A stretch of 64,000 nucleotides of DNA from positions 24,633 to 88,632 of IMG/VR virus record IMGVR_UViG_3300049718_000055; one strand, given 5' to 3'. This DNA is from a virus. The notes under the pieces are model-generated. The model did not search any database, was not told the DNA's origin, and worked only from the letters and a program-made list of their open reading frames with translations. Below are positions 15,051 to 31,800 of the stretch, piece after piece. How positions within the stretch are numbered: the stretch's first letter is position 1; every line of letters begins with the position of its first letter. Position numbers and translations under genes: made by a program.

Positions 15051-16729
15051 TTAATCCCGGCTGCTTGCTTGAAGGCGTCAGCCGATTTCTGGTCTGGGAA
15101 TGTGTAGGTATTTCCGTCTGGAGCTTGAATCGCTATGGTCCCCTGCTGCTGTCCCCCTGTTGTCCCACCAATCGACTTTACGGCAGAGTCGTACTCTTCC
15201 GCAACGCTTTGCTTTGCGCCGTCAAGAAACTTCTTCGCTCTGGTGTAGGCCGCATCTTTGGCCTGTTGAGCAGCCTCGAGAATCGACGGGTCGCCAGTAG
15301 CCGCCGTCTTTTGAGCCGCTGCAAATGCCTTGTCCGCAGCGGCAAGGTCGGCCTTGTATTGATTCTCAGCCTTCCGGTAGCCTTCCTTCTGCTTCTGAGT
15401 AGCCTGCCGGGTTACTGAGGCTGTGAGAGCCGTCTGCTTGCCTCCCGGCGGCGGGGTGATTCCAGCCTTTGCGGTCTTGCCAGCCTGCGGTGGACGGCCA
15501 ATCCCTTGCGCTCCCTGCCCGGTAGGAGACGCCTTTGCCGTTGGAGGCTTACTGATCCCTGCCGAAGCGGGAGAAGCCTGCCTCGAAGCCGCTGGAGGTG
15601 GCTGTATGGCCACCGGAGTGGCCTTGCGCGTCGCTGTGGTCTTCCTGTCTCCCTGCGGGGTGGTAGAGGACGTACTCGTGGTGGCTGTCTGAAGAGTTTT
15701 ATCCGCCCTCGCTTGCTGCCTTGCTGCCGTCAGTTGCTCTGTGGTGGCGTTTTCTCTCGTTACCCCAAACTTTTCCTTTAGAAACTTATCCTCTGCTTCG
15801 GCGTCGGAACCGGCCTTTGGCGCCGCGCTCCCTGCCGTTGCGTTCCATCCCTCCGGCTGTCTCCCAGGAACATACCAACCCCTACGGCTTCCGTCTGGAG
15901 AGGAGTATTCCTTCGGAGTACCCCTTCCAGATTCCCGCTCCCTTTGCTCGATTCTTCCCTTTGCCGCATCGATTGGCTTGACGCCGGTCTCAGGGTCTAC
16001 GTCAAACACCTGCTTCTTTACTTCGGGCGGGAGAATAGCCTGTTGTTTTTCATCAAGGCTGCCGTATAGAGCAACCATATTGGAGTCCGCAGCGGCTTGC
16101 TGCTTGCTCTGGACTTCCTGTTGTTGTTCCTGCAACTTAACATTTTGTTCTTTCCCTTGCTGGGTCTGACCTAGCGGCCTTGCCTGCATGGTCATCAAAG
16201 CAAGTTGGGGAACGATATGCTGGTTCGCCGCAAGAAAATCTCGAATGTTGCTGAATCCCGCGCTGGCTTGTTTCTTGTCTTTGCCGCCCGTTGAACCAGA
16301 GCCTCCCGATGCGCTCTTCTTCCCCTTCTGTGTCTTATCAGGAATCATTATCGAACTGATCCCAGCTAGAGCCGTGTCTGTTGTTCCCTTATATGCAATG
16401 AAAGCAGGGTCTTTTTCGTCGTTCGGCTTCGCTTCTCCAGAGTCGATTTTCTGCTGGTACTGATCCCTCGCTGCCCCTATCGCCGCTTGCGCAGAATTGT
16501 ACATTGCCTCTGCTTGAGCTTGCTTCCGCTGTTCTTTTACCTTGTGCCCCTGCATGAAACCCTTGAGCATGGCATCGCCGATTGCCAGAGCACCTGTTCC
16601 ACGTCTTCCAAATTGGCCATTTAGAGGTTGCGCAGGCCCGCCGCCGCCGGTATTGTTCATGGGCAGTTGAACAAGCGGAATCGTACTGACATACGGCTTG
16701 ATCTCGGTTTGGGGAGTATTTACTGGCAA
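15047..16729 (-). CDS. Putative internal virion/DNA-ejection protein
   Basis: Ala/Gln/Gly-rich helical 560 aa, coupled to the giant gene. Confidence 0.6.
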   Translation of the reverse strand: MPVNTPQTEIKPYVSTIPLVQLPMNNTGGGGPAQPLNGQFGRRGTGALAIGDAMLKGFMQGHKVKEQRKQAQAEAMYNSAQAAIGAARDQYQQKIDSGEAKPNDEKDPAFIAYKGTTDTALAGISSIMIPDKTQKGKKSASGGSGSTGGKDKKQASAGFSNIRDFLAANQHIVPQLALMTMQARPLGQTQQGKEQNVKLQEQQQEVQSKQQAAADSNMVALYGSLDEKQQAILPPEVKKQVFDVDPETGVKPIDAAKGRIEQRERESGRGTPKEYSSPDGSRRGWYVPGRQPEGWNATAGSAAPKAGSDAEAEDKFLKEKFGVTRENATTEQLTAARQQARADKTLQTATTSTSSTTPQGDRKTTATRKATPVAIQPPPAASRQASPASAGISKPPTAKASPTGQGAQGIGRPPQAGKTAKAGITPPPGGKQTALTASVTRQATQKQKEGYRKAENQYKADLAAADKAFAAAQKTAATGDPSILEAAQQAKDAAYTRAKKFLDGAKQSVAEEYDSAVKSIGGTTGGQQQGTIAIQAPDGNTYTFPDQKSADAFKQAAGIK

Positions 16730-20004: not shown

Positions 20005-21189
20005 CTAGAAAAATACACCCGCGGTCGGAGAACCCACTATCGGAGATCCGCCGCCTCCACTCAATGACACCTGCCCACCAGAGTTCGTCAACACCACCAC
20101 AGCAACTATTTGGTTCCCATCAAAATTTACCTGAAGCCTATTTTGTGCAGTATCGCCAGAATACGGCCCCGAAAGAATGACAATTCGGCTTCCCTTTTTG
20201 ACGCTGTAGTACCACACGTTCCCTACTTCAACGCTTCCCCCAGACCCGCTAACGGTTCCCAGGGAGGCTTGATAGGTGAACGTATACGGCGGAGTTGCTG
20301 AACTGATCGGATATGAGCCATTGAACCCCGCAGGGGATACTCCGGCAATCGTCATCGAACTTTGAGCCGTGAGCCCCGTGGCTACATAGGTAACCACCGT
20401 CACAAGGTTTCCCACACTGGAGATTGAATGGATTCCATACGAGGTAGGAAGGGAAAGGGTATCCGTCCTTCCGTACAAATAGGTTTTACTTCCATCGGCA
20501 AAAGTGAAGGGGCTGGCCGGAATGGTTACCGTCACGCTTCCGGCATTTGTTATTGCAGCCACTAGGAAATAGGCGCTTCCAACCGAGCCGGACTGAGTGG
20601 GATAAACCTTGTCCCCAATCGCATAATTCAACCCTCCAAAAACACTTCCCCCTGTGACCACCCCGCCAGCCGCCGTAATCGCAGCCAAAGCCCCCGTGCC
20701 GCTTCCCGAAGTGGTCGTAGGCAGGTTGGAAGCATTGCTGTACCCAGAAGTTCCGCCAGCCCCCAGAGAAGACGAAGTGATTACCCCGCCCGAGATAGAG
20801 TTCGTTGTCAGCGGAATGATGTTGTTGGCGTTTGGGGGAGTTGACATAAGATCGTTCAACCAGGAGCTTTGCTGCTCCCTCTGTGAATTTGAATTTATCA
20901 TCCGATACGTGTCGAGAGAGTTTCCGCTGTTTGCCTGAAGCTGCGGCTTCAAAGCGGCAGCACTGTACGAAGTCTTCGCCGCCCCGCTCGTCAACGCATC
21001 ACTATCCGAGGTCGGCGCCGCAACATTCTTGATATTATTGCCACCGAGGTTGAGATGATTGCTCAACTCGACTTCCCCATTATGACCGCCAAGAGTGTTC
21101 ACGTTGTCAATCAGTTGGCTCATCAATTGGCTCTCTGGAAGAGACAGGGAGGAAAAGTTTATCTTTCCGAGTTTGGAAGACTTCGGCAT
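20005..21189 (-). CDS. Tail/structural protein
   Basis: Gly/Ser/Thr beta-rich; NIKNVAAPTSDSDA neck-like motif. Confidence 0.6.
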   Translation of the reverse strand: MPKSSKLGKINFSSLSLPESQLMSQLIDNVNTLGGHNGEVELSNHLNLGGNNIKNVAAPTSDSDALTSGAAKTSYSAAALKPQLQANSGNSLDTYRMINSNSQREQQSSWLNDLMSTPPNANNIIPLTTNSISGGVITSSSLGAGGTSGYSNASNLPTTTSGSGTGALAAITAAGGVVTGGSVFGGLNYAIGDKVYPTQSGSVGSAYFLVAAITNAGSVTVTIPASPFTFADGSKTYLYGRTDTLSLPTSYGIHSISSVGNLVTVVTYVATGLTAQSSMTIAGVSPAGFNGSYPISSATPPYTFTYQASLGTVSGSGGSVEVGNVWYYSVKKGSRIVILSGPYSGDTAQNRLQVNFDGNQIVAVVVLTNSGGQVSLSGGGGSPIVGSPTAGVFF

Positions 21190-21470
21190 TATCCAGCTAC
21201 CTCTACTAGTTTTCCGTGCTGTTCCCACGGCGTAACGACATCATCAGGAACAGGACCAAAACACCTTCCTTCGTTCTTGCATTCCGATATTCCCGATCTT
21301 GACATTCTAGAATCAGGTTTTCCGTGAAAGATATGACGCTTCCCGTCAGTCTTTGAAATCTTCGGAATCCAATACTGTTCGCACCCCCAGCAGTATCCGT
21401 CAACCTGAAACCTTGGAAATTCGGATTGGATCGTCTCTGGCATGGAATCAGTATACCCCAATGTAGGCAT
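21189..21470 (-). CDS. Hypothetical Cys-containing protein
   Basis: CWGC; stop coupled to next start. Confidence 0.5.
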   Translation of the reverse strand: MPTLGYTDSMPETIQSEFPRFQVDGYCWGCEQYWIPKISKTDGKRHIFHGKPDSRMSRSGISECKNEGRCFGPVPDDVVTPWEQHGKLVEVAG

Positions 21471-21500
21471 AAACAGAAAAGCCTCTTCCGAAGAAGAGGC
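21471..21500 (-). terminator. Intrinsic terminator
   Basis: GCCTCTTC-TTCG-GAAGAGGC followed by TTTTCTGTTT. Confidence 0.75.
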
Positions 21501-21521
21501 CCGTCTGCGGATAGGGGAAGC

Positions 21522-22031
21522 CTAAGCCGGGGTTGTAAATTGCACTGCCACGCTTTGCGTGAGTTGGGCCGGCGGAACGACAGCGTTCGTGGTGATTGTG
21601 AACGCCTGAGTCCAGGTCGAAACCACGCCGTCATTATCAGTGACCGTGGCAGCAGCCGTTCCAGTGACAGCGCCGGCCGAGGCCGCTACGCCGGTAACAG
21701 TGGCGGTCAAGCCGTCAGCATTGAGAACCACGGTCGCGGACGGGTCCGAGAACGTGTACGAGACGGCAGAGAGTACGCCGCCAGAGAGGGTGACGCCATC
21801 GGCCAAAAGGGGCTGAATGGACGCCTGCGAAGTTTGACCAACATTGAGGGTCAAAGCATTGTTTGCCATGGGTGAGTCTCCTGTGAAACGAACTTCGATT
21901 GAGTAGGTTGCGAGTTTGGGTTTGAGTTCACGGCGAATCTCTCTGAGCAACCGCTCAATCCGATGTCTTGCATAGAGCGTTGCCCATTGACATTCTAAAA
22001 TTTCACGTAATTGTTCGAGTGGATTCTCCAA
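21522..22031 (-). CDS. Ig-like domain protein (two in-frame starts, 22031 and 21869)
   Basis: LTLNVGQT..SDPSATV..DGLTATVTGVA Big_2-like domain; RBS before both starts. Confidence 0.65.
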   Translation of the reverse strand: MENPLEQLREILECQWATLYARHRIERLLREIRRELKPKLATYSIEVRFTGDSPMANNALTLNVGQTSQASIQPLLADGVTLSGGVLSAVSYTFSDPSATVVLNADGLTATVTGVAASAGAVTGTAAATVTDNDGVVSTWTQAFTITTNAVVPPAQLTQSVAVQFTTPA

Positions 22032-22096
22032 ATGGTCCCTCCACCAATCTCTTAACTACACTATACCACTACATTTTGAATCTGTGGTGAGCAATA

Positions 22097-22180
22097 TGGA
22101 GCGGGGGACGGGATTTGAACCCGCGTGTCTCTCGACGGCAGCTTGGAAGGCTGCTGACCTACCAGTTGGTCATCCCCCGC
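22097..22180 (-). tRNA. tRNA-Gly(TCC), long variable arm
   Basis: GCAGC-CT TCC AA-GCTGC; TCCA end. Confidence 0.9.
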
Positions 22181-22185
22181 AAACT

Positions 22186-22259
22186 TGGTGCTCCCCGCAG
22201 AAATCGAATCCGCATTGGCCGATAATCGGTCGGCTTTCCTACCATTGGAAGAGAGGAGC
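22186..22259 (-). tRNA. tRNA-Ile(GAT), C33/T37
   Basis: GCCGA-CC GAT TA-TCGGC. Confidence 0.85.
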
Positions 22260-22260
22260 A

Positions 22261-22334
22261 TGGGGCCGGGAGCGAGAATCGAACTCGCGCCTCATCCGTA
22301 CCAGGGATGCAGTCTCCCACTAAAATATCCCGGC
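22261..22334 (-). tRNA. tRNA-Thr(GGT)
   Basis: CATCC-CT GGT AC-GGATG. Confidence 0.9.
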
Positions 22335-22340
22335 TCTACT

Positions 22341-22418
22341 TGGTGCGGATGGCAGGACTCGAACCTGCGGTAATTCTTCTTTGTAGGAGAAGCGGCGTCG
22401 CCACTGGCCCACATCCGC
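22341..22418 (-). tRNA. tRNA-Val(TAC), C33
   Basis: CTTCT-CC TAC AA-AGAAG. Confidence 0.85.
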
Positions 22419-22423
22419 AAAAC

Positions 22424-22501
22424 TGGTACTCCCGGTTGGACTCGAACCAACATCAATCCACTTACGGACACTCGCTTCGGAGGCGAGACCGATACGGGAG
22501 C
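22424..22501 (-). tRNA. tRNA-Arg(CCG), no canonical D-arm
   Basis: CTCGC-CT CCG AA-GCGAG; 7-nt connector. Confidence 0.85.
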
Positions 22502-22506
22502 ATAAC

Positions 22507-22583
22507 TGGGGCCGCTGGCCGGAATCGAACCGGCGTCATCCAACTACTCTTGCCGGTTTAGGAAACCGGAGAGATACAGCGGC
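22507..22583 (-). tRNA. tRNA-Arg(CCT), no canonical D-arm
   Basis: CCGGT-TT CCT AA-ACCGG; 7-nt connector. Confidence 0.85.
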
Positions 22584-22587
22584 AAAC

Positions 22588-22664
22588 TGGCGCTCCCGGC
22601 AGGAGTCGAACCCGCGTCATCCGTCTACGGCCTCCTGTTTAGAAGACAGTGCCGATACGGGAGC
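22588..22664 (-). tRNA. tRNA-Arg(TCT), no canonical D-arm
   Basis: CTGT-CT TCT AA-ACAG; 7-nt connector. Confidence 0.85.
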
Positions 22665-22666
22665 AT

Positions 22667-22752
22667 TGGTGGAGCCGGTGGGACTCGAACCCACATTGGG
22701 TTACCCCGCTGATTAAAAGTCAGGTCTCTGCATCCAATTCGAGTACGACTCC
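22667..22752 (-). tRNA. tRNA-Lys(TTT), long variable arm
   Basis: CTGA-CT TTT AA-TCAG; V hairpin GGG-TAA-CCC. Confidence 0.9.
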
Positions 22753-22758
22753 GAAACT

Positions 22759-22833
22759 TGGTGGGTCGCCGGGGAATCGAACCCCGCTCTTTCGATTAAG
22801 AGTCGAGTGCATCGCCGACAATGCTTGCAACCC
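22759..22833 (-). tRNA. tRNA-Lys(CTT)
   Basis: TCGA-CT CTT AA-TCGA. Confidence 0.9.
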
Positions 22834-22836
22834 ACA

Positions 22837-22930
22837 TGGTAGGGGATGAAGGTGTCGAACCTTCCCGTTGCGCTAATCTGGCGCTCTCCAGAGTTTATAA
22901 GACTCCGCCGCACGGCCGATGCTATCCCCC
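22837..22930 (-). tRNA. tRNA-Ile(TAT), long variable arm
   Basis: GGAGT-CT TAT AA-ACTCT; V hairpin GCGC-CAGATTA-GCGC. Confidence 0.85.
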
Positions 22931-22936
22931 AAAACT

Positions 22937-23008
22937 TGGTGCCGCGCCTGAAAATCGAATTCAGCAAACAGGGTTATGAATCCTGCGTTCTCTCCAGAGA
23001 TGCGCGGC
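22937..23008 (-). tRNA. tRNA-Met/Ile2(CAT), small D-arm
   Basis: CAGGA-TT CAT AA-CCCTG. Confidence 0.8.
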
Positions 23009-23009
23009 T

Positions 23010-23083
23010 TGGCAGGGGATACAGGACTCGAACCCGTAAATTCCGCTCTGGAGGCGGACGTTTTTCCATTAGACTAATCCCCT
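23010..23083 (-). tRNA. tRNA-Trp(CCA)
   Basis: TCCGC-CT CCA GA-GCGGA. Confidence 0.92.
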
Positions 23084-23095
23084 ATGTCAAAGAGC

Positions 23096-23121
23096 ATAAA
23101 AAACCCGCTCCTGAGAGCGGG
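23096..23121 (-). terminator. Attenuator terminator, operon 1
   Basis: CCCGCTC-TCAG-GAGCGGG-TTTTTT, upstream of tRNA-Trp. Confidence 0.9.
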
Positions 23122-23148
23122 CCTGTCGCAACAAAAACGCAGCAGACC

Positions 23149-23220
23149 CTAAAACACGACTCCCCAAATGACCCGCTTCCCGGTCATTCTGGTTATCACG
23201 TGTTTGGTCCTGATCTGCAT
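23149..23220 (-). CDS. Leader peptide 1 MQIRTKHVITRMTGKRVIWGVVF
   Basis: AGGTGG RBS; codons match all 12 downstream tRNAs. Confidence 0.85.
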   Translation of the reverse strand: MQIRTKHVITRMTGKRVIWGVVF

Positions 23221-23240
23221 GAATTCCCACCTGCAAGTAC

Positions 23241-23269
23241 AGCGTACATCAACTTTCCGTTTTGTGCAA
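23241..23269 (-). promoter_or_regulatory. Sigma70-like promoter P1
   Basis: TTGCAC-17-TACGCT. Confidence 0.75.
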
Positions 23270-23273
23270 CTGC

Positions 23274-24458
23274 TCAGTCCTTGTAAGGATCAAATTCACG
23301 GGCAGATGCCATAGCCACTCCGACCGGGGTCAACACGTGAAGAACTTTGATCGAATCTCCACACGCCGCAAGAACTCCGTCTAGCCGTTTGTAGCAGTCT
23401 GGAGATTCGTCTAACCCGGCGCCACGCAGTTCAATTCCGGCCTTCCTTACCCATCCATCCATCATCTCCTGAGTTACTCTTCCAGGGCGCTTGCACTCGC
23501 CTGTCTTGCGGTCGAAAGTCCCCTTCGCCTCCATGCGACCCATTGCACGGCCAGCGCCGTGAACGGTTGAGTAAAGGCTGTACTTGGCATCCTCGTTCTC
23601 CATGCCCTCCAAGATGACGGACTTCTCGCCCATCGTTCCTCCAACGAATCCCTTCTGTCCAGGGAACGCCGGAGTGGCTCCCTTGCGAACAACCCACAGC
23701 ATCTCACCACCATGCTCTTCCCGCCATGCGAAGTTGTGATGGTTGTGAACCTCTTCAATAGCCTTAGCTCCAAGAATCTTAATCACGCGGTCGCAGACCC
23801 AGTTCCTTCCTGCATAAGCGTACTCGCCGGCAAGAGACATAGCCTGTAGATATTCGCTGCCTAGTGCGCTGTCTACCGACAAGACACATGGCTCCACATC
23901 CATTCCGTCTTTTGCTCCTGCTGCTTTCAAAAACCACGTTGCAATCTTATGCCCGAGGCCGCGAGAACCGAAATGAACACCCACCCAAACGCGGTCTTCT
24001 TCGTCTGTAAAAAGATCTACATAATGGTTTCCAGAACCCAAAGTCCCAAGTTGCTGATGAGCCATTTCCTTGAGCGGGGAGGTCATTGAAAGACTCCAGG
24101 CATCATGCTCGAAAACCTGATCGTCTACACGCTCGTCGTCATTCTTTCTCCCAACCCCAAAACTGACTATATTCCATACGTCATCCATTATCGGCTTGAT
24201 GCTGCCACGCAACATCCAGCCTTCCATGTCGGTCAACACGGCCTTGTTTCCACAGCCGATGTCGTATCCCACTCCGGTTGGGCTGATGGAATTTCTATAA
24301 GCCACAACACCGCCAATGGGCACACCGTACCCAAGGTGGTTATCTGGCATCAATGCCACTTTGTCCGCGGTTTTCGCACAGGTCCGAATCTGGTTGAGAG
24401 TCTTTTCTTCAGCTTCCCCAAATACCGGTATAGTTCCATCTACTAACTGCATCCCCAT
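23274..24458 (-). CDS. rtcB: RNA ligase RtcB
   Basis: PDNHLGYGVPIG, VGYDIGCG, GTLGSGNHY, HNHHN, RKGAT, HGAGR, DESPDCYK; start revised to follow the GGAGG RBS. Confidence 0.97.
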   Translation of the reverse strand: MGMQLVDGTIPVFGEAEEKTLNQIRTCAKTADKVALMPDNHLGYGVPIGGVVAYRNSISPTGVGYDIGCGNKAVLTDMEGWMLRGSIKPIMDDVWNIVSFGVGRKNDDERVDDQVFEHDAWSLSMTSPLKEMAHQQLGTLGSGNHYVDLFTDEEDRVWVGVHFGSRGLGHKIATWFLKAAGAKDGMDVEPCVLSVDSALGSEYLQAMSLAGEYAYAGRNWVCDRVIKILGAKAIEEVHNHHNFAWREEHGGEMLWVVRKGATPAFPGQKGFVGGTMGEKSVILEGMENEDAKYSLYSTVHGAGRAMGRMEAKGTFDRKTGECKRPGRVTQEMMDGWVRKAGIELRGAGLDESPDCYKRLDGVLAACGDSIKVLHVLTPVGVAMASAREFDPYKD

Positions 24459-24473
24459 ACCCTCCTTTTTATT

Positions 24474-24548
24474 TGGTGAGCGCGGAGGGAATCGAACCCC
24501 CATCGTTGCGTTCGTAGCGCAGCACTCTATCCGTTGAGCTACGCGCCC
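24474..24548 (-). tRNA. tRNA-Arg(ACG)
   Basis: TGCG-CT ACG AA-CGCA; canonical D-arm with GGA. Confidence 0.92.
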
Positions 24549-24559
24549 ACATTCAAACT

Positions 24560-24633
24560 TGGTCTCCGAGGGCGGACTCGAACCGCCGACACCGCGCCCC
24601 GAACGCGGGATGTTTCCACTACACTACTCAGAG
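24560..24633 (-). tRNA. tRNA-Pro(CGG)
   Basis: CCGCG-TT CGG GG-CGCGG. Confidence 0.9.
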
Positions 24634-24634
24634 A

Positions 24635-24708
24635 TGGTCAGCGAGGGGAGAATTGAACTCCCACCACAAGTTCCCAAGACTTGGATGCAACCATTACACC
24701 ACTCACTG
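24635..24708 (-). tRNA. tRNA-Pro(TGG)
   Basis: CAAGT-CT TGG GA-ACTTG. Confidence 0.92.
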
Positions 24709-24717
24709 ATTAAAAGT

Positions 24718-24885
24718 TATGCGTGACGGAATCAAACCGTCTCCACCCGCTCCAATGCGGGAGTGCTATCCGTCCAGAGTCGTGTCGATCTTGAGCCGCT
24801 ACGTATCGCCCCAAAACGCATTCCACTGTACTGCCTTCGCTACGCTCCGTCGAGCTTCACTTTGGCTTCATTACACCAACGCATA
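24718..24885 (-). ncRNA. tRNA-like element with ~97-nt insertion in the D-loop, 6-nt anticodon loop, no CCA
   Basis: TATGCGT/ACGCATA acceptor, GTGT/GCAC D-stem, CCCGC-ATTGGA-GCGGG, GACGG-TTTGATT-CCGTC. Confidence 0.7.
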
Positions 24886-24887
24886 CT

Positions 24888-24963
24888 TGGTGCCGACTAC
24901 CCGTATCGAGCGGGTTTCCATCGCTCTTCAGGCGATTGCTATGACCTCATCAGCTAAGTCGGC
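24888..24963 (-). tRNA. tRNA-Phe(GAA)
   Basis: ATCGC-CT GAA GA-GCGAT. Confidence 0.9.
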
Positions 24964-24968
24964 AAAAC

Positions 24969-25044
24969 TGGTGGACCTAGAGGGGCTTGAGTCCTCGACC
25001 TCCCCGGTGCAAACGGGGTGCTACTCCATCTGAGCTATAGGCCC
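24969..25044 (-). tRNA. tRNA-Ala(TGC)
   Basis: CCCCG-TT TGC AC-CGGGG; G3:U70. Confidence 0.92.
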
Positions 25045-25052
25045 GTAAAACT

Positions 25053-25128
25053 TGGAGGGAAAGGTGGGAGTTGGACCCACTAGAACCTGTTCCACAGACA
25101 GGCGCCGCACCGTTTGGCTTCAGTCCCC
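25053..25128 (-). tRNA. tRNA-His(GTG)
   Basis: CCTGT-CT GTG GA-ACAGG; G-1 present; two acceptor mismatches. Confidence 0.85.
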
Positions 25129-25138
25129 ATAAAGCTGT

Positions 25139-25210
25139 TGGGGCCGGATGTGGGAATCTAACCCACCGCGCAGGCCGTACAAAGGGCTGCTGCTACTCAG
25201 AGCATCCGGC
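25139..25210 (-). tRNA. tRNA-Thr(TGT), atypical
   Basis: TT TGT AC loop, short D-arm, T-loop TTAGATT. Confidence 0.75.
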
Positions 25211-25759
25211 TCAGTTAAACGCATACCTCTTATCACCTTCGGAGTCCGTGAATAAAAACGGACCCCACTCATTTACCTCGGCGCCGAGAGACCTCAACAA
25301 AAATCGCGGCGTGTGAATCGACTGCGGCAGCGGCCGGCGAAGCAACTTCATTCCAGCTTCCTCCGGCGTCCGGTCGGCCTTGCGGTGATTATCTTTGGCG
25401 CAACATGAAACCAAGTTGCTCCACGATGGCGATCCTCCTCTTGACTTTGGAATTATGTGGTCAAGAGTTAGTTCGCTAGTCTTGAACCTTTCTCCGCAAT
25501 ACATACACCTTTCTCCGTCACGAAGAAAAATGTTCTTGCGGCTTACAACTTGAAGCCTAATTGGGACGTGGCGATAAGCGCGAAGCCTGATTACCGATGG
25601 AGCATAGATTCCAAGTCCGCGATGGATAAGTACATCGGTAGGAACCTCAACCAGAGCAACACCTTTCGTAATAAGAGTCAGAGCCTTCTTAACTGAAACT
25701 ATGCGAAGCGGCTCATACGATGCATTGAGAAGAAGTGTTGCGCTTTTTCCTATTGTCAT
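25211..25759 (-). CDS. HNH endonuclease (McrA-like, tRNA-array-associated type)
   Basis: LLLNASYEPL..PSVIRL..RDGERCMYCG..LTLDHIIPKSRGG..WSNLV..N. Confidence 0.93.
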   Translation of the reverse strand: MTIGKSATLLLNASYEPLRIVSVKKALTLITKGVALVEVPTDVLIHRGLGIYAPSVIRLRAYRHVPIRLQVVSRKNIFLRDGERCMYCGERFKTSELTLDHIIPKSRGGSPSWSNLVSCCAKDNHRKADRTPEEAGMKLLRRPLPQSIHTPRFLLRSLGAEVNEWGPFLFTDSEGDKRYAFN

Positions 25760-26531
25760 AGTCACCACGCTCCCAACGTTCTTTCAGTAAAGCAGACATC
25801 TTCGCCTTAGTTTCTTCCTTGTGCTTCATACCTTTGTTTCCAGGTACTCTGCCTTTCCTGATTGCCGACTGTTTAGCCCGTGTTTCTTCGGAAGCCTTTT
25901 TACCTGTCAGAGAGCGAGAAATCTTTGCTTTACTCTCTTCTGAAAGTTTCCTTCGTCTGTTCGCCGCAGAAATCTTCTCACTAAATCCCTGCGGTTTAGG
26001 TCTCCCCTTCAAAGCAGCAGATCGTTTTGCTTTTTCTTCCTCCGACATTGGGCCTAATTTCCGGCCCCTAAATGATGCCGACATACGCGCTTTGGTTTCT
26101 TCCGAACGCTTTGAACCAGTCCTAGATTTAATCATCTTGGCTATCGCCTCTGCTGTGTGTCTCAATCCCTTATGCACAGCAGATACTTTCGCTTTCATTT
26201 CGGCTGTTCTAACCGCTCCTGATCCTCCCTCGCCCCCATCTGTTCTATTTCTCAAGCATCCAGTTCCAAGGTTAATTCTCCCATGGAATTTTATTAGCTG
26301 CTTCTCCATGAAAAACGCTTCGTCCTCTGACAAATCTTTGGCAATAATTACAATCATCGATTTATCTTTTGGAGTACGTATCGCTTCAATAGGATTTTTC
26401 TTATAGGCTCTTAACCCGTGTCCTTTCCCTATGTAATAAGGAGAACCCGCTGGGCCGTGTTCGGAGGCAAAAGTCCTCACGTATTGGTATACGTAAAACC
26501 CAGAGATTACAGGTCTCCTATAGTTACTCAC
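25713..26531 (-). CDS. GIY-YIG homing endonuclease with NUMOD3 repeats
   Basis: FYVYQY..PYYIGKG..R..NRTDGGEG, repeated SEETKAKMS; start revised to GTG 26531 because a tRNA lies upstream. Confidence 0.88.
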   Translation of the reverse strand: MSNYRRPVISGFYVYQYVRTFASEHGPAGSPYYIGKGHGLRAYKKNPIEAIRTPKDKSMIVIIAKDLSEDEAFFMEKQLIKFHGRINLGTGCLRNRTDGGEGGSGAVRTAEMKAKVSAVHKGLRHTAEAIAKMIKSRTGSKRSEETKARMSASFRGRKLGPMSEEEKAKRSAALKGRPKPQGFSEKISAANRRRKLSEESKAKISRSLTGKKASEETRAKQSAIRKGRVPGNKGMKHKEETKAKMSALLKERWERGDYDNRKKRNTSSQCIV

Positions 26532-26555
26532 TGTCTTACTCTCTTTCCTTAAAAG

Positions 26556-26630
26556 TGGAGCCGGGTAGCGAAATCGAATCGCTGTCTGTGGGATACGAAT
26601 CCACTGCTCTGCCATCTGAGCTAACCCGAC
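26556..26630 (-). tRNA. tRNA-Thr(CGT)
   Basis: GTGGA-TT CGT AT-CCCAC. Confidence 0.9.
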
Positions 26631-26713
26631 TATGTTTTTCTGCTAACCTCTTCCACACTTCTCGGAGATCGGCATTCAAATGAAACCTGTGCGGCATGTC
26701 AACCTCCAAAATT

Positions 26714-26787
26714 TGGAGCGGTTTGCCGGATTTGAACCGGCGCTTTCGCCCTGGCAAGGCAACGTCTTACCACTCGACTAAAACCGC
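26714..26787 (-). tRNA. tRNA-Gly(GCC)
   Basis: TTGCC-TT GCC AG-GGCGA. Confidence 0.92.
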
Positions 26788-26792
26788 TTCAC

Positions 26793-26866
26793 TGGCTCCG
26801 AGAGTAGGAGTCGAACCTACACAGCGAGCTTCAAAGACTCGCGGCCTACCGTTAACCGATCTCGGA
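26793..26866 (-). tRNA. tRNA-Gln(TTG)
   Basis: CGAGT-CT TTG AA-GCTCG. Confidence 0.9.
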
Positions 26867-26873
26867 TCAAACT

Positions 26874-26949
26874 TGGCTGGGAAGGCAAGTCTCGAACTTG
26901 CTACCTTCCGGGTCAGAGCCGGACGTTCTACCCGTTGAACTTCTTCCCA
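26874..26949 (-). tRNA. tRNA-Gln(CTG)
   Basis: TCCGG-CT CTG AC-CCGGA. Confidence 0.92.
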
Positions 26950-26958
26950 ACTTCAAAC

Positions 26959-27033
26959 TGGCTGTGCAGGTGGGAGTCGGACCCACATCCTCTCGCTTAA
27001 CAGGCGAACGCTCGACCATTGAGCTACCGCACA
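26959..27033 (-). tRNA. tRNA-Asn(GTT)
   Basis: TCGC-CT GTT AA-GCGA. Confidence 0.92.
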
Positions 27034-27035
27034 TC

Positions 27036-27074
27036 AAAAAGCCCCTAACCGCTTATTCTCGGCTAGGGGCTTTT
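27036..27074 (-). terminator. Attenuator terminator, operon 2
   Basis: GCCCCTAGCCG-8nt-CGGTTAGGGGC-TTTTT, 2 nt before tRNA-Asn. Confidence 0.9.
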
Positions 27075-27117
27075 CCTCATTTGCTACGTTGTAGCAGTTG
27101 AATCTTTGCGCCCAAGC

Positions 27118-27180
27118 CTACACGGGATTACCGAACGCTTGTGGCGTTGTCGGCTGTCCGGTATGGGCTCGGTTCATCAT
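27118..27180 (-). CDS. Leader peptide 2 MMNRAHTGQPTTPQAFGNPV
   Basis: ATG 7 nt after the -10 box (leaderless); codons match all 12 downstream tRNAs. Confidence 0.87.
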   Translation of the reverse strand: MMNRAHTGQPTTPQAFGNPV

Positions 27181-27187
27181 GTTTCCT

Positions 27188-27216
27188 ACTTTACCGCCGT
27201 TCGCAATTTCTGTCAA
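27188..27216 (-). promoter_or_regulatory. Sigma70-like promoter P2
   Basis: TTGACA-17-TAAAGT. Confidence 0.85.
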
Positions 27217-27225
27217 ATCATTTTC

Positions 27226-27302
27226 TGGTAGGGTTGGTGGAACTCGAATCCACTAGGACATGATTGAAGGTCATGGTGCTCGTCCGCTTTGCATTCAACC
27301 CC
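27226..27302 (-). tRNA. tRNA-Glu(TTC), C33
   Basis: CATGA-CC TTC AA-TCATG. Confidence 0.87.
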
Positions 27303-27307
27303 ATAAC

Positions 27308-27384
27308 TGGCGCGGTAGACGGAAATCGAATCCGTGTACACGATCTTGAGAGAATCGCTGGAGAACCAGCACCCCTGCTACCGC
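27308..27384 (-). tRNA. tRNA-Glu(CTC)
   Basis: CGATT-CT CTC AA-GATCG. Confidence 0.87.
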
Positions 27385-27385
27385 A

Positions 27386-27460
27386 TGGCGGTCCCACGGG
27401 GAGTTGAACCCCGAACGCCTCTTAGACAGAGAGGAATCATTGCCGTTAGACCATGGGACC
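27386..27460 (-). tRNA. tRNA-Asp(GTC)
   Basis: CCTCT-CT GTC TA-AGAGG. Confidence 0.9.
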
Positions 27461-27464
27461 AAAA

Positions 27465-27583
27465 GTTCCGTTTTGTTTGCCTAGCGGCCCAGTCTCCCAT
27501 CGCATTAGCAGAATTCCGACTGAGGTTCATCCACTGCGGACTCGAGTCCGTTTGCTAGACTCTTGCCAGAACGGTACTGGCCT
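27465..27583 (-). ncRNA. Unassigned structured RNA between tRNA-Met and tRNA-Asp
   Basis: Nested helices CCGTTCTG/CAAAACGG, GTCTAGC/GCTAGGC, CGGAC-TCGA-GTCCG, CTCAGTC/GACTGGG. Confidence 0.55.
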
Positions 27584-27589
27584 TTGGAT

Positions 27590-27664
27590 TGGTTGCGTGG
27601 GGAGGACTCGAACCTCCGGTCTCCAGCTTATGAGGCTGGCGAGATGCCGCTTCTCTACCTCGCC
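27590..27664 (-). tRNA. tRNA-Met(CAT), 1-72 mismatch (initiator-like)
   Basis: CCAGC-CT CAT AA-GCTGG; G1xA72. Confidence 0.87.
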
Positions 27665-27669
27665 ATTTC

Positions 27670-27698
27670 AGTATGCCACTACTCTTTCATGTTGGCAA
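27670..27698 (-). promoter_or_regulatory. Internal sigma70-like promoter P4
   Basis: TTGCCA-17-CATACT, 5 nt upstream of tRNA-Met. Confidence 0.7.
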
Positions 27699-27701
27699 GT
27701 A

Positions 27702-27787
27702 TGGTGCATCGCCCCAGGCTCGAACTGGGCTGCTCCGAAGAGCGGCAGGTTTACAGTCTGCTGGCCGTCCACCCGACCATGCGATGC
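27702..27787 (-). tRNA. tRNA-Tyr(GTA)
   Basis: GCAG-ACT GTA AAC-CTGC; long V arm. Confidence 0.92.
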
Positions 27788-27791
27788 AAAA

Positions 27792-27881
27792 TGGAGGAAG
27801 GTGGAGTAATCGAAACCCTACGCCATCGCTGACGCACCACGGTTTTCAGGACCGTTCGCCGACCATTCAGCGGCACCTTCC
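27792..27881 (-). tRNA. tRNA-Ser(TGA), 8/4 fold
   Basis: GGAAGGTG/CACCTTCC 8-bp acceptor, 4-bp T-stem, ACGGT-CC TGA AA-ACCGT. Confidence 0.85.
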
Positions 27882-27885
27882 AAAC

Positions 27886-27973
27886 TGGCGGAGACGATCC
27901 GATTTGAACGGATGGAACCTTGCGGTTCGGAGGTTTAGCAAACCTCTGGATTAGACCGCTCTCCCACGTCTCC
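27886..27973 (-). tRNA. tRNA-Ser(GCT)
   Basis: GAGGT-TT GCT AA-ACCTC; long V arm. Confidence 0.92.
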
Positions 27974-27978
27974 AAACT

Positions 27979-28054
27979 TGGTGCCGATGGTCGGGTACGA
28001 GCCGACAAGCCTGAAGGTTTGAGCTTCAGAGGTATTCCTTCCCATCACATCGGC
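27979..28054 (-). tRNA. tRNA-Leu(CAA), short variable loop
   Basis: TGAAG-CT CAA AC-CTTCA. Confidence 0.85.
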
Positions 28055-28059
28055 AAAAC

Positions 28060-28135
28060 TGGTGCGGGTGGAGGGACTCGAACCCCCATGAGACTGATCC
28101 TAAGTCAGCCGCGTATTCCATTCCGCCACACCCGC
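28060..28135 (-). tRNA. tRNA-Leu(TAG), short variable loop
   Basis: GCTGA-CT TAG GA-TCAGT. Confidence 0.9.
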
Positions 28136-28146
28136 ACATCTCAAAC

Positions 28147-28219
28147 TGGAGTACCGGGCCGGACTTTAACCGGCTTCAACGGTTTTGCAGACCGTCCGCT
28201 CGCCCTTCGCTTCCGGTAC
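28147..28219 (-). tRNA. tRNA-Cys(GCA)
   Basis: ACGGT-CT GCA AA-ACCGT; U73. Confidence 0.88.
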
Positions 28220-28220
28220 A

Positions 28221-28298
28221 TGGTGCGGGTGAACGGTGTCGAACCGATCCTAAACTGGGCTTAAACCAGTTGCCTCTTCCAACGTGGGCTACACCCGC
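28221..28298 (-). tRNA. tRNA-Leu(TAA), short variable loop
   Basis: ACTGG-TT TAA GC-CCAGT. Confidence 0.88.
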
Positions 28299-28300
28299 AC

Positions 28301-28334
28301 AAAACAAAGCCGCCGATCTCTTCGACCGGCGGCT
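28301..28334 (-). terminator. Attenuator terminator, operon 3
   Basis: AGCCGCCGGTC-GAAGA-GATCGGCGGCT-TTGTTTT, directly before tRNA-Leu. Confidence 0.9.
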
Positions 28335-28360
28335 CGTGAATTCCAAACTTTGGAATCAGT

Positions 28361-28426
28361 TCACATAAGCCCCCGGCCCGTCAATGGCAGGCAATACGAG
28401 GATAGCGAACTGAGTAAAATTCTCAT
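28361..28426 (-). CDS. Leader peptide 3 MRILLSSLSSYCLPLTGRGLM
   Basis: ATG 6 nt after the -10 box (leaderless); all six Leu codons, 4 Ser, Tyr, Cys. Confidence 0.87.
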   Translation of the reverse strand: MRILLSSLSSYCLPLTGRGLM

Positions 28427-28432
28427 ATCCAA

Positions 28433-28461
28433 ATCTTCCCACAGATAATCATTATTGTCAA
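28433..28461 (-). promoter_or_regulatory. Sigma70-like promoter P3
   Basis: TTGACA-17-GAAGAT with extended TGn. Confidence 0.75.
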
Positions 28462-28515
28462 TCGGTCATTCCGGTACAGTTAAATTCCCCTCTTCGTCCT
28501 CCAATTGAGGCTGAG

Positions 28516-28740
28516 GTGTACACCATGCCACTAAGTTTGTTTTGGATCATCGCCGTTGTAATCATTGCCGGAGTAGTTCTTTGGGCTCTAAACTCGTTCC
28601 CTGCCATTGACCCCACCATGAAGCAGATCGCCAGAGTGCTTATCATCGTGCTCGTGGTTATCATGGTTCTCTACTTCCTGTTTGGATTGCTTGCAGGTGG
28701 TGGTGCGGGATTCCATAGCTTCCCCGGTCCTTGCCGCTAA
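28516..28740 (+). CDS. Small two-TM membrane protein
   Basis: Two hydrophobic helices flanking PAIDPTMKQI. Confidence 0.75.
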   Translation: MYTMPLSLFWIIAVVIIAGVVLWALNSFPAIDPTMKQIARVLIIVLVVIMVLYFLFGLLAGGGAGFHSFPGPCR

Positions 28741-28752
28741 TCTTGCCGGCAC

Positions 28753-28782
28753 AAAAAAGCGGCAGACCCGAAAGCCTGCCGC
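28753..28782 (-). terminator. Intrinsic terminator after the nozzle gene
   Basis: GCGGCAGGC-TTTCGG-GTCTGCCGC-TTTTTT. Confidence 0.8.
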
Positions 28783-28850
28783 ATTCCCCATGATTTGATC
28801 TGCGTTGTTATGAATAAACTCTACATCCGGTCGTAGAAGTTGTCAACCGC

Positions 28851-31800
28851 TCATGGCTCCACAAACAATACTTTCTCGTAGCCTCTCCCTTGGCACTGGA
28901 CCTTGTACCACAAATTAGAATCAGGCCAAAGAATAAAGTCCTCCGTACTTGTTCCGACCATTCTCAGTGTACGGAACGAGATTGCCGGTAGTCGGGTCCG
29001 CAATGGATTGCGAAAGCCGCCAGCTTGCGGCATTACAAATGTGAATCCAGCCGTTGGATTATCGTCGTAGAACACGTTGACAATGATCGGCGCACCCGCT
29101 GAGTAAATCCAGAAAACGTCGCGCGCAAATTTGGAAGATGCCTCCGAAATATTGATCTTGTAAGTGTCGAACGTCTTCCTCGTCCTCGGCAGTACCAGAG
29201 CCTCTACAGCGGCTTGGTACAGGTACGCGAACGTGGACAGATTCCCGACGATCTGGAGACTGATTTTGTAGGCTTGCTGGCCGAGTCCGTTGAGCAACGG
29301 CAGGTTGATCTTGCCGCGAGTCGAGTTGCTGATCGTTCCGAGTGGGACCGTGATTGCGCCGTCATTAAACAAGGCGTTGACGGTCAAGGTCTGCCCCCCG
29401 AGGTTGCAGTCAACCACAATCGCGTTGTACTGTTTCTGGTTTGCCGGCGAGCTTTGGAATGAGTAAGCAGTCTGGAGATTGATTGCAATCGGCCCCGCGG
29501 CCAGTACGCCCCCGCTTGATACTTGATCGTAGGGAAGGTTTTGCCGGTCAATGTGTACGAGCCCGTTTGAATCGCCGTAGAGCAACTGATTCGTATCGGC
29601 CTCAAGCATCAAGCATTGCGCGTCAACGTCATCATTCCTGAATCGCTTGTACTGAGCGTGGTATACCAACCGATGCCGGTTTCCGTCCGTACCGATGTAA
29701 CTGAAAAATACCATTGAGTTCCAGTACGAAGCCACCGTCTGCGACAACTTCGTTTGGTCCGCTTCGACAATCGGAGTGGAACCTACGCCCTGGAAAAGGA
29801 ACTCAACCTGGAGACTCATGTACACCGACTCCCCACCAGTAAAAGCACGTAGACCATCTGCGGCTTGGTAGGCAATCATCTCTTCGGTCGCCACGTACCC
29901 AAATGGCGCCACACAACCATGCGCACAAGACGTGGGATATGGTGCCTGTTTTGCCGGACTGTCCGGTGGAACCATCCACCATCCGCTTTTGATACAACTG
30001 ACCATGATATTTCCCTTGAAAGGCACCACGGCCGTAATGTAATCATCCGGCGTAGAGATGATGATGTTGTTCGCTTCACCCACGTACTGCGGAGCGTTTC
30101 CGGTGCTGAAGTAAAGCGTTGACGGGTTGTTCGGATCTCCCCAATACCATGCCTTGTTGAAAGCTATGACCATGCCGTAGACCGGCTGGCCTACCTTAAT
30201 ACTCGCCTGGACCTGCTCTCCAGCCGCATGATAATTCTGGACAAAGGCAGTGAAAGAACTCACTCCGACTGTCAATACCACTACGGTTTCAAAGTTGTTT
30301 GCTTGAGCCGTTGGATTCCCCAACAAGACTTGCTGGCGCACTGAGATGTTCGCCATGCTTGCCGGGTTTATCGTCACTACAGAGCCCACCGGAATATCTG
30401 GCAGCGTGTAATAGATCGTGACCACTAGATTGTTGACATAGACGGTTGCCGCTGATGATCCTAAGTTGTCTCCGCCTACAAGCGTCTGAGTAAAATCAGC
30501 ATTGACGATTGCAGGAGTAATCGTAGTGCCCCACAAATTTCCACTTCCACCAAAGACATAAGTCTGCGGAGCTAGTGTCAAGGAAATCTCTGCCGGAAGG
30601 GCGGCTCCGGGAATATTTATACTTGCGGTCATCTTAGGACCGAGCACGCTCGTATAAGCATCAAAGCTGACTTTAATTCCGGTGATGGTCGCGGTTAAGG
30701 GGATGCTCGGAAGACTGAAGTCTCCCTGCAAGGCCCCAATCCCTTGCGAAGCAGGTGCCGACACGGACGTATAAAGTGATGAAGATGTAGCGTTGGTTGG
30801 ATTTACCCAAGTAGACCCGACCGGATTCGATCCTGTGATTGACGGAGAAACCTGTAATGTTCCTACAATAGCAGCGTTCAGTGTAGTATTCACCGGAACC
30901 GGAAGAAGACTCGGAACCGGAACATCGTTCGTAAACGAAACCATATCCGCTCCGGCTATCAGGTAGTCCGGTGCCGTGTCGGTATACTGGACTATCCCCC
31001 CGCCCTCTATGCTGATCGGGATTTCGTCTATTCGCCTGAAGTTATCTCCGTAGGTTCCCCCTCTTCTATAGATTCTCAGATACCCGATCTGACCATCCTG
31101 CAACTGTCCTGCGGGTCCGTAAGTCTTAGTGTTGATTTTTAACAACACCGGCTGGCGCCGCGGGTAGACCCAGTTCGTATGGTTAGGCGGGTTCTGATTC
31201 GTCATTATCGGAGATGGATTCGATTCCGTTCCATCCACGTCATTTAAGAACGTCGCAACATAGTCATAGGCTACTCCACCAAGAGTATCTGGACCTGCCC
31301 CTCCAAACAGTACCAGAGAAGAAAGTTTAATCGTCGAGCTTGAGTTGTCATTCATCACAATCGTGATCTGATAGCCGTTGACGTTTGACCAGTTGTAGAC
31401 CGCATCTTTATAGTCCGCCATCCCTGCTCCAGAAAAATCTGACAACTGGAAGAGAAGCGGCGTCCAGATATTTTTCCCTGTATCCAGTTCTCCGATAGAC
31501 CCGGCTCCATTTCCGTAAAGGCTGAGACTATCCTCAAGAACAGCTTCCGTTAGAAGAGTAGTTACGCTACTTGTCCCAGAGGCAGAAGATGTTGCTAAAG
31601 TAGTCAACTCCTGCAAAGGTCCTTGGGAAATTACTTTATAGAAATAGTCGCTCTCGAATGATCCGTCTCCGCAATCAAAACTTAGCGTTATGCTCTGGAT
31701 TTGCGTTTGGTCGCTGACAAACATATAGAGACCAATGTAATCAGATTGGTTGTCGGATACAGTCTCGCTAGAGGGGATAGGATATGGACCTATCGGAAGC

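Follow-up and report, generated by a model that had tools for sequence, protein, structure and literature searches.

We analyzed a tRNA gene array in a 64,000-nucleotide stretch of viral DNA (the window; positions 24,633 to 88,632 of IMG/VR record IMGVR_UViG_3300049718_000055), which is part of an 88.6-kb viral contig from peat. All features of the array lie on the minus strand. The array is divided into blocks of tRNA genes, three of which are each preceded by a cassette composed of a promoter, a short open reading frame (ORF), here called the leader, and a hairpin with a T-run. A sequence-only reading of this DNA had described three such cassettes with 17-bp promoter spacers and leaders of 20-23 codons, and had proposed that they gate the tRNA blocks by attenuation. 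We recover all three cassettes at these positions; their spacers are uniformly 17 bp, and the leaders measure 21, 20 and 23 codons. The cassettes and the tRNA genes that follow them are:

28461-28299 (-): cassette A, promoter, short ORF, hairpin and T-run
28433-28461 (-): promoter A, TTGACA (28461-28456), 17-bp spacer, GAAGAT (28438-28433), read from the sequence
28361-28426 (-): leader ORF A, 21 codons and TGA
28299-28335 (-): terminator A with T-run, hairpin 28335-28307, 12-bp stem, ΔG -23 kcal/mol
27702-28298 (-): tRNA block A, Leu-TAA, Cys-GCA, Leu-TAG, Leu-CAA, Ser-GCT, Ser-TGA, Tyr-GTA
27230-27664 (-): after block A, Met-CAT, a 130-nt spacer, Asp-GTC, Glu-CTC, Glu-TTC
27216-27034 (-): cassette B, promoter, short ORF, hairpin and T-run
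27188-27216 (-): promoter B, TTGACA, 17-bp spacer, TAAAGT, 10/12 consensus matches
27118-27180 (-): leader ORF B, 20 codons and TAG
27034-27073 (-): terminator B with T-run, hairpin 27073-27038, 14-bp stem, ΔG about -24.7 kcal/mol
24474-27033 (-): tRNA block B, first Asn-GTT, Gln-CTG, Gln-TTG, Gly-GCC, Thr-CGT; after homing-endonuclease genes, Thr-TGT, His-GTG, Ala-TGC, Phe-GAA; after a 175-nt tRNA-like insert, Pro-TGG, Pro-CGG, Arg-ACG
23269-23084 (-): cassette C, promoter, short ORF, hairpin and T-run
23241-23269 (-): promoter C, TTGCAC, 17-bp spacer, TACGCT, overlapping the end of rtcB
23149-23220 (-): leader ORF C, 23 codons and TAG
23094-23124 (-): terminator C with T-run, hairpin 23124-23101, 10-bp stem
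22097-23083 (-): tRNA block C, Trp-CCA, CAT (Met or Ile2), Ile-TAT, Lys-CTT, Lys-TTT, Arg-TCT, Arg-CCT, Arg-CCG, Val-TAC, Thr-GGT, Ile-GAT, Gly-TCC

With default settings ARAGORN finds 24 tRNA genes between 22097 and 28298 (-); a relaxed ARAGORN search, Rfam and a hand parse of cloverleaves add 11, giving a total of 35. The additional genes are Ile-GAT, His-GTG, Thr-TGT, Ala-TGC, Ser-TGA, Glu-TTC, Cys-GCA, a second CAT tRNA and three Arg tRNAs with a non-canonical core (TCT, CCT and CCG). At -ps80 ARAGORN miscalled these odd Arg tRNAs and Ser-TGA, for which the hand parses were used instead.

The ATG lies 6 nt past the -10 box in cassette A and 7 nt past it in cassette B, and a spacing of 6-7 nt is found in nine cassettes of related loci. 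This constant distance predicts leaderless mRNAs for A and B and, together with in-frame indels, argues for a translated, leaderless ORF. Cassette C has a 20-nt 5' untranslated region with an AGGTGGG Shine-Dalgarno sequence and carries a 14-nt insertion relative to its leaderless homologue in the related locus L002; indels in leader C among relatives are in frame. The three hairpins begin 24-44 nt 3' of the leader stop codons, and the terminators (ΔG -17 to -25 kcal/mol) end 4-10 nt 5' of the first tRNA, namely 8 nt from tRNA-Leu(TAA) in A, 4 nt from tRNA-Asn in B and about 10 nt from tRNA-Trp in C, so that transcription of the blocks needs read-through. The interval from promoter to tRNA in each cassette holds the short ORF and the strong terminator and nothing else, with no space for another promoter. 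In each of the 11 cassettes examined first, here and in relatives, the stretch from stop codon to first tRNA contains a hairpin of -16 to -25 kcal/mol and a T-run. A TTGACA hexamer is located between terminator C and tRNA-Trp (23085-23090, -), and also in L002 (about 11343-11348) and in phage Tunturi_5; its distance to the tRNA varies from 1 to 17 nt, and it may be a chance occurrence or the remnant of a second promoter.

We compared the codons of each leader with the tRNAs of all three blocks, counting a tRNA as matched if the leader contains a cognate codon under standard wobble rules. Leader A matches 8/8 tRNAs of its own block (three Leu, Cys, two Ser, Tyr and Met) and 4/12 and 6/12 in the other blocks; leader B matches 12/12 of its own and 1/8 and 5/12 of the others; and leader C 12/12 of its own and 1/8 and 4/12 of the others. 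Complete matches within blocks (8/8, 12/12 and 12/12) thus stand against cross-block counts of 1-6. The earlier claim that every tRNA is matched by its own leader is borne out for the 7/7 genes up to Tyr (8/8 with Met) and for both larger blocks; it does not extend to Asp and the two Glu tRNAs located past Met. A permutation of codons against own- and other-block tRNAs had been set beforehand as a test, and in 200,000 trials that reassigned the 32 tRNAs among the blocks, a total of 32 matches was never reached, the maximum being 28. Random in-frame windows of long ORFs give a full match with a frequency of about 5e-4 per block.

Codons 4-15 of leader A encode Leu, Ser, Tyr and Cys, with each of the six Leu codons appearing once. 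Codons 3-19 of leader B are all Asn, Arg, Ala, His, Thr, Gly, Gln, Pro or Phe, and 19 of its 20 codons are distinct. Leader C includes AGG, AGA, CGG, ATA, ATC, ATT, AAA, AAG and TGG, as well as ACC three times, GGG, GGA and GTG. The putative sensor codons are mostly singletons, one per isoacceptor, and the match at the isoacceptor level reported in the sequence-only reading is real: AGA, AGG and CGG in leader C go with Arg-TCT, -CCT and -CCG, and CGA in leader B with Arg-ACG, while ACC alone is used in leader C with Thr-GGT, and ACA and ACG occur in leader B with Thr-TGT and -CGT. When the peptides are held fixed and synonymous codons are resampled from the codon usage of the phage, the number of matched tRNAs has P=0.004, and the number of distinct synonymous codons is unusually high (P=0.005 overall; P=0.024 for leader A and P=0.013 for leader B).

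Short ORFs are common in this DNA, and they could be incidental or encode functional small peptides, the match then reflecting codon bias, shared ancestry or a post-hoc choice of frame. A survey of all starts in six frames yields 769 ORFs of 18-26 codons in the window, and for the small block A three unrelated ORFs besides the leader also reach 8/8. For blocks B and C, leaders B and C are the only ones among the 769 to reach 12/12. The match is furthermore block-specific rather than genome-wide, and it is tuned at synonymous sites, both of which speak against incidental ORFs.

We fetched related loci via RtcB and via two leader patterns; they carry handles of the form L002. One of them, L086, gave a 17-mer pattern match in an unrelated stretch with no tRNAs nearby and was rejected. 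Counted against their own blocks, the leaders match 5/5, 11/12 and 11/12 tRNAs in L002, 8/8 and 7/7 in L082, 9/9 and 15/22 in L006, and 9/9 and 15/25 in L014. In Tunturi_5 (L088, PP885688), a cultured jumbo phage whose host is Tunturiibacter psychrotolerans, the counts are 8/9, 14/16 and 16/16. This phage has the same three-block partition as the window, with leaders at 7390-7488, 15456-15569 and 27807-27956 on the reverse strand of the locus. ARAGORN finds 42 tRNAs in three clusters there. In the GenBank record PP885688, neither the tRNAs of this region nor the leader ORFs, three in number, are annotated; the Tunturi_5 paper counts 43 tRNAs, and the passages on tRNAs consulted in it are silent on their regulation.

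Leader codons co-vary with the content of the arrays, as the sequence-only reading had anticipated, and track the relocation of Trp and of Asp and Glu tRNAs. In L006 and L014 the Trp and Cys tRNAs are grouped with Leu, Ser and Tyr, and leader 1 contains TGG and TGT/TGC; leader 2 of these loci covers other amino acids and lacks Ser, Trp and Tyr, and in L006 also Leu and Cys. Tunturi_5 carries its Asp and Glu tRNAs in block C, where the leader contains Asp codons six times and Glu codons three times. Across the window, L002, L003, L090 and L092, the composition of leader B is constant and the order of its codons is shuffled, which fits selection on codon content, not on the peptide. In the near-identical L085, both substitutions in leader A change an amino acid, and one of them creates a Ser codon cognate to the block.

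A rule-based scan covered 24 array-bearing locus strands for ATG ORFs of 15-50 codons followed by a hairpin (ΔG ≤ -14 kcal/mol), a T-run and a tRNA. The 31 distinct ORFs obtained match 187/226 (83%) of their next eight tRNAs and 196/456 (43%) of the other tRNAs of the locus (odds ratio 6.4, p=4e-24, a value that overstates independence because the scanned loci are related). The frame control is not affected by this relatedness: shifted into the +1 and +2 frames, these nucleotides give matches of 50% and 39%. Being frame-specific, the match suggests that the leaders are read by translation of the ORF, unlike a T-box. The shared ancestry of many relatives, which inflates the pooled p-values, is a further point in favor of regarding the ORFs as incidental; the loss of the match in the other two frames, its tracking of tRNAs moved between blocks, the lack of conservation of peptide order and tails, and the two amino acid-altering substitutions in L085 all speak against this explanation, and we regard it as very improbable.

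The Asp and Glu tRNAs beyond block A may belong to a separate unit that has no leader, together with tRNA-Met. A promoter-like site, TTGCCA-17-(TG)CATACT with an extended -10 TG, is found at 27698-27670 (-) and ends 5 nt before tRNA-Met, and the Tyr-Met junction holds a full cassette in L002 and L082. A separate Met-Asp-Glu-Glu unit would explain why the sequence-only reading arrived at 7/7 for block A. tRNA-Met(CAT) itself (27590-27664, -) has acceptor-stem mismatches G1·A72 and A5·A68; the mismatch at 1:72 is an initiator-like trait, and the anticodon stem lacks the three G-C pairs. The 130-nt spacer between Met and Asp (27461-27592, -) is missing in L085, where Asp directly follows Met, and is covered by an exact-match metatranscriptome contig (27445-27651). 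Three further candidates were considered. A 9-codon GTG ORF in the spacer, with GAT and two GAA codons, might have been a fourth mini-leader for Asp and Glu; it was not counted, no promoter or terminator motif was seen in the spacer, and the spacer is missing in L085. An upstream extension of leader A to TTG-GAT, which would have provided an Asp codon, was rejected, as its start would precede the predicted transcription start. Cassette X of L002 (3740-3820, in the Tyr-Met interval) has a leaderless-type promoter; its match is unspecific, and no Asp or Glu tRNAs follow it.

We looked for leader segments that could pair with the 5' arms of the terminators. The predicted strands for the first two cassettes are:

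28366-28379 (-): antiterminator strand A, codons 16-21, predicted from folds to pair with the terminator 5' arm
27107-27119 (-): candidate antiterminator strand B, at or just past the stop codon, duplex -15.9 kcal/mol, z -2.4

The duplex of strand A has -21.4 kcal/mol (z -3.7), and in a leader A transcript cut before the 3' arm of the terminator, codons 16-21 pair with 11/12 bases of the 5' arm. This structural tail is made up of precisely those codons of leader A that do not match. When a ribosome-sized stretch was kept unpaired, the full-length transcript lost the terminator from its minimum-energy fold for stalls at codons 5-8, and truncated transcripts kept the antiterminator pairing for stalls from codon 1 to codon 12. 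From codon 14 onward the ribosome occupies the strand, and the terminator reappears in the fold. In L085 the sole substitution in antiterminator A falls on a bulged base. A ribosome at the stop codon is predicted to cover strand B. The earlier placement of an antiterminator at or next to the stop codon is supported by predicted pairing for A and B and less well for C. The accompanying statement that a stall on any depleted species frees the antiterminator is too strong: it would apply to upstream codons, whereas a ribosome stalled within about 12-15 nt of the antiterminator strand (e.g. at TTG, codon 15 of leader A) masks that strand.

Across 21 codon-matched cassettes, the complementarity between terminator 5' arm and leader beats dinucleotide shuffles in 21/21 (mean z -2.0, with 12 below -1.64); the best values are found for L002_A (-4.6), for cassette A of the window (-3.7) and for the A and B cassettes of L090 and L092 (-3.2 to -3.7). 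In 14/21 cassettes, compared with 9 expected, a ribosome at the stop codon would cover at least part of the partner. Leader tails are unrelated between lineages, and each is complementary to its own terminator. Support for the predicted antiterminator is good for the A and B families and modest to weak for C-type and several distant cassettes.

From sequence comparison and predicted folding, the cassettes likely work as trp/his/thr-type attenuators, in which a translating ribosome controls transcription; each would sense the decoding of block-specific codons and have the tRNA block as its output, probably joined by rtcB in the case of cassette B. Transcription would start at a σ70-like promoter, in A and B directly at the AUG of a leaderless mRNA, and a ribosome would translate the ORF of 20-23 codons, in which the sensor codons are those decoded by the downstream tRNAs. 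When decoding is fast, the ribosome would reach the stop codon and cover the antiterminator strand, the terminator would form, and transcription would stop bases before the first tRNA. When a cognate aminoacyl-tRNA is scarce, the ribosome would stall upstream, the freed strand would pair with the terminator 5' arm, and RNA polymerase would read into the tRNA block. As the tRNA products would relieve the stall, the loop would amount to negative feedback on tRNA supply, with roughly OR logic across the sensed species.

The opposite polarity seems quite improbable. Efficient translation would then suppress the terminator, and a stall would uncouple ribosome and polymerase and cause termination, which would make the circuit a positive loop or a checkpoint. 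One report (PMC4824070) describes that ribosomes repress terminators close behind a stop codon and that termination efficiency increases with the distance between stop codon and terminator, and some terminator-less leaders of relatives end 20 nt from the first tRNA. The hairpins in the window, however, begin 24-44 nt past the stop codon, the complementarity between leader tail and 5' arm, masked by a stop-codon ribosome, fits the classical logic only, and what would be gained from a positive loop on tRNA supply is not obvious.

Several points weigh against attenuation of the classical type. Asp-GTC, Glu-CTC and Glu-TTC lie in the same run as block A and have no codon in leader A, which reduces its match to 8/11 if they are counted. 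Because each sensor codon is present once, and not in runs as in his, leu and phe leaders, the sensitivity to a mild shortage would be low, and an uncharged pool in starved cells would also give read-through, which new tRNA could not cure. The -10 boxes of promoters A and C are weak, and in the promoter scan taken overall, shuffled sequences gave at least as many sites. For cassette C there are two alternative candidate partners, codons 15-18 (z -2.2) or the stop codon, and z values above -1 are obtained for L002_C, L014_2, L082_C and L157. What the sequences show is the anatomy, the codon match with its frame specificity and covariation, and the tail/terminator complementarity; translation of the leaders, stalling, switching and the physiological trigger are inferred. 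Finally, leader 1 of L006 (3339-3452), L014 (6893-6979) and L157 (27-113; 8 of the next 8 tRNAs matched) is a perfect match to its Ser/Tyr/Leu/Trp/Cys block but lacks both hairpin and T-run and ends about 20 nt before the first tRNA, so that another mechanism is needed at least there.

These terminator-less leaders, together with the weak antiterminator scores of several cassettes, raise the question whether the leaders are translated sensors that act otherwise, by tnaC-like Rho-dependent polarity or by translation-dependent protection or processing of the tRNA precursor. The 3' half of the terminator-less leaders is C-rich and G-poor, as a Rho site might be; this C-richness is due to their Ser and Leu codons and is no independent evidence for Rho. 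We consider such a non-terminator route unlikely for the cassettes in general, given the strong hairpin with T-run and the lineage-specific complementary tails in the three cassettes of the window and the 21 codon-matched cassettes of relatives. The cassette design is not universal among tRNA-rich phages, since in the tRNA region of phage T5 no codon-matched short ORFs were seen behind promoters P14a, P13b and P15b.

Other genes and elements are embedded in the array:

23274-24455 (-): rtcB, RNA ligase RtcB, Pfam PF01139, E=2e-69
25211-26615 (-): two overlapping homing-endonuclease-type genes in the middle of block B, HNH (185 aa) and NUMOD3-repeat protein (300 aa)

The rtcB gene has a Shine-Dalgarno sequence of its own and starts about 20 nt past tRNA-Arg(ACG). 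As the minus strand shows no flagged terminator-like site between the two, rtcB probably belongs to the leader-B unit and would be co-induced with block B. The arrays of relatives have insertions at positions other than the homing-endonuclease site of the window. Between Phe and Pro-TGG, a 175-nt tRNA-like element (24710-24884, -) has about 100 nt where the D-arm would be, alongside an acceptor-like stem, a T-arm and an 'anticodon' loop of 6 nt, and is reminiscent of the 'tRNA-like stable RNAs' annotated in T5. A related-phage contig joins 24709 to 24885 via 'CA' alone, and the element is therefore a discrete insertion. The three tandem Arg tRNAs (CCG, CCT, TCT; 22420-22665, -) have a rearranged core, in which only about 5-6 nt connect the U8-N9 connector to the anticodon stem. 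Their 18-19-nt 'variable' region contains a D-loop-like AG..GGAU motif, and a short 5' segment pairs with the start of this region (CGG/CCG in two, CUCU/AGAG in the third). The same architecture is present in Arg-TCT of L002 and Arg-CCG of L082, whose other Arg tRNAs are canonical. One peat metatranscriptome contains exact-match contigs on blocks A and C, which as contigs cannot show RNA ends or levels and may derive from DNA carry-over.

We compared the cassettes to known regulatory systems. Leader-peptide attenuators are known for trp, his, leu and pheA, and some are multivalent: the thr leader senses Thr and Ile, and the ilvGMEDA and ilvBN leaders sense Ile, Leu and Val. The phage cassettes resemble these enterobacterial operons in their order of promoter, short ORF with regulatory codons, hairpins for antitermination and termination that exclude each other (as predicted here), and regulated genes. 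As in thr and ilv, several amino acids are covered per leader, and a stop-codon ribosome would mask the antiterminator strand. The phage cassettes differ in that their output is tRNA genes rather than biosynthetic enzymes, so that the sensed molecule would be the product; in that their leaders would sample 7-12 tRNA species, mostly with one codon each and at isoacceptor resolution, where the enterobacterial leaders use runs of one or two codons; and in that most are predicted to be leaderless mRNAs in a phage setting. The E. coli pheST attenuator with its pheM leader likewise controls a component of the translation apparatus by charged-tRNA supply; it is cellular, regulates a synthetase and senses a single amino acid via repeated Phe codons.

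T-box riboswitches also sense tRNA status through a terminator/antiterminator switch, govern translation-related genes and read a codon-like triplet, but they bind uncharged tRNA directly and without a ribosome, whereas the phage leaders appear to be read via an ORF; Rfam gave no match to a T-box or known leader family at E ≤ 1 in 21000-29500. The tnaC/Rho-dependent and the erm and cat leaders correspond to the proposed mechanism in that a ribosome stalled on a short upstream ORF switches on downstream genes. Their ribosomes stall when a small molecule or an antibiotic acts on the nascent peptide, not when particular tRNAs run short, and their outputs are protein genes. In Anabaena sp. PCC 7120, translational stress switches on the long tRNA array of the trn operon, which is regulated jointly with rtcB (PMC8421152). 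It resembles the phage arrays, as interpreted here, in being supernumerary, horizontally mobile and silent until translation is impaired, with a functional link to RtcB. Its control differs: promoter direct repeats are bound by the TrcR repressor, no codon-matched ORF is described, and the words leader, attenuat- and terminator are absent from both reports (PMC8421152; PMC10272220). On reading the three promoters of the window we saw no Anabaena-type repeats, although no formal search was made. By analogy, the closest architectures are the multivalent thr and ilv leaders and the pheST attenuator, and the nearest published biology is the Anabaena array. New would be that a known attenuation mechanism governs tRNA genes. 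In line with the sequence-only reading, full-text literature searches, which left most subscription journals uncovered so that older work may exist, returned no published account of leader-peptide control of tRNA genes or arrays.

The trigger of such a response could be host tRNA loss during infection, a mismatch between codon demand and tRNA supply, or a tRNA-cleaving defense system. Host anticodon nucleases include PrrC, RloC, the PARIS effector and retron-associated nucleases. It is possible, though we hold this only tentatively, that the arrays are inducible closed-loop modules rather than constitutive codon-usage helpers, in which a multi-codon leader would monitor decoding capacity in real time, isoacceptor by isoacceptor, and release replacement tRNAs and RtcB upon any loss, for example by anticodon-nuclease cleavage; the cassettes could then serve as an inducible counter-defense and as natural tRNA biosensors with isoacceptor specificity. 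The link to anti-phage tRNA nucleases is pure conjecture on our part.

Since the cultured pair of Tunturi_5 and Tunturiibacter psychrotolerans X4BP1 has the same three cassettes, the hypothesis is directly testable, and the leaders could be turned into compact reporters for how much of a given tRNA isoacceptor is available. If attenuation operates as proposed, the regulation of phage tRNA genes and their sorting into isotype-specific blocks, both largely unexplained so far, would gain a mechanism and a reason, the blocks being sensing units. Attenuation would be extended to stable-RNA genes, where the sensed molecule is also the product, and tRNA supply and RtcB repair would be joined in one induced response.

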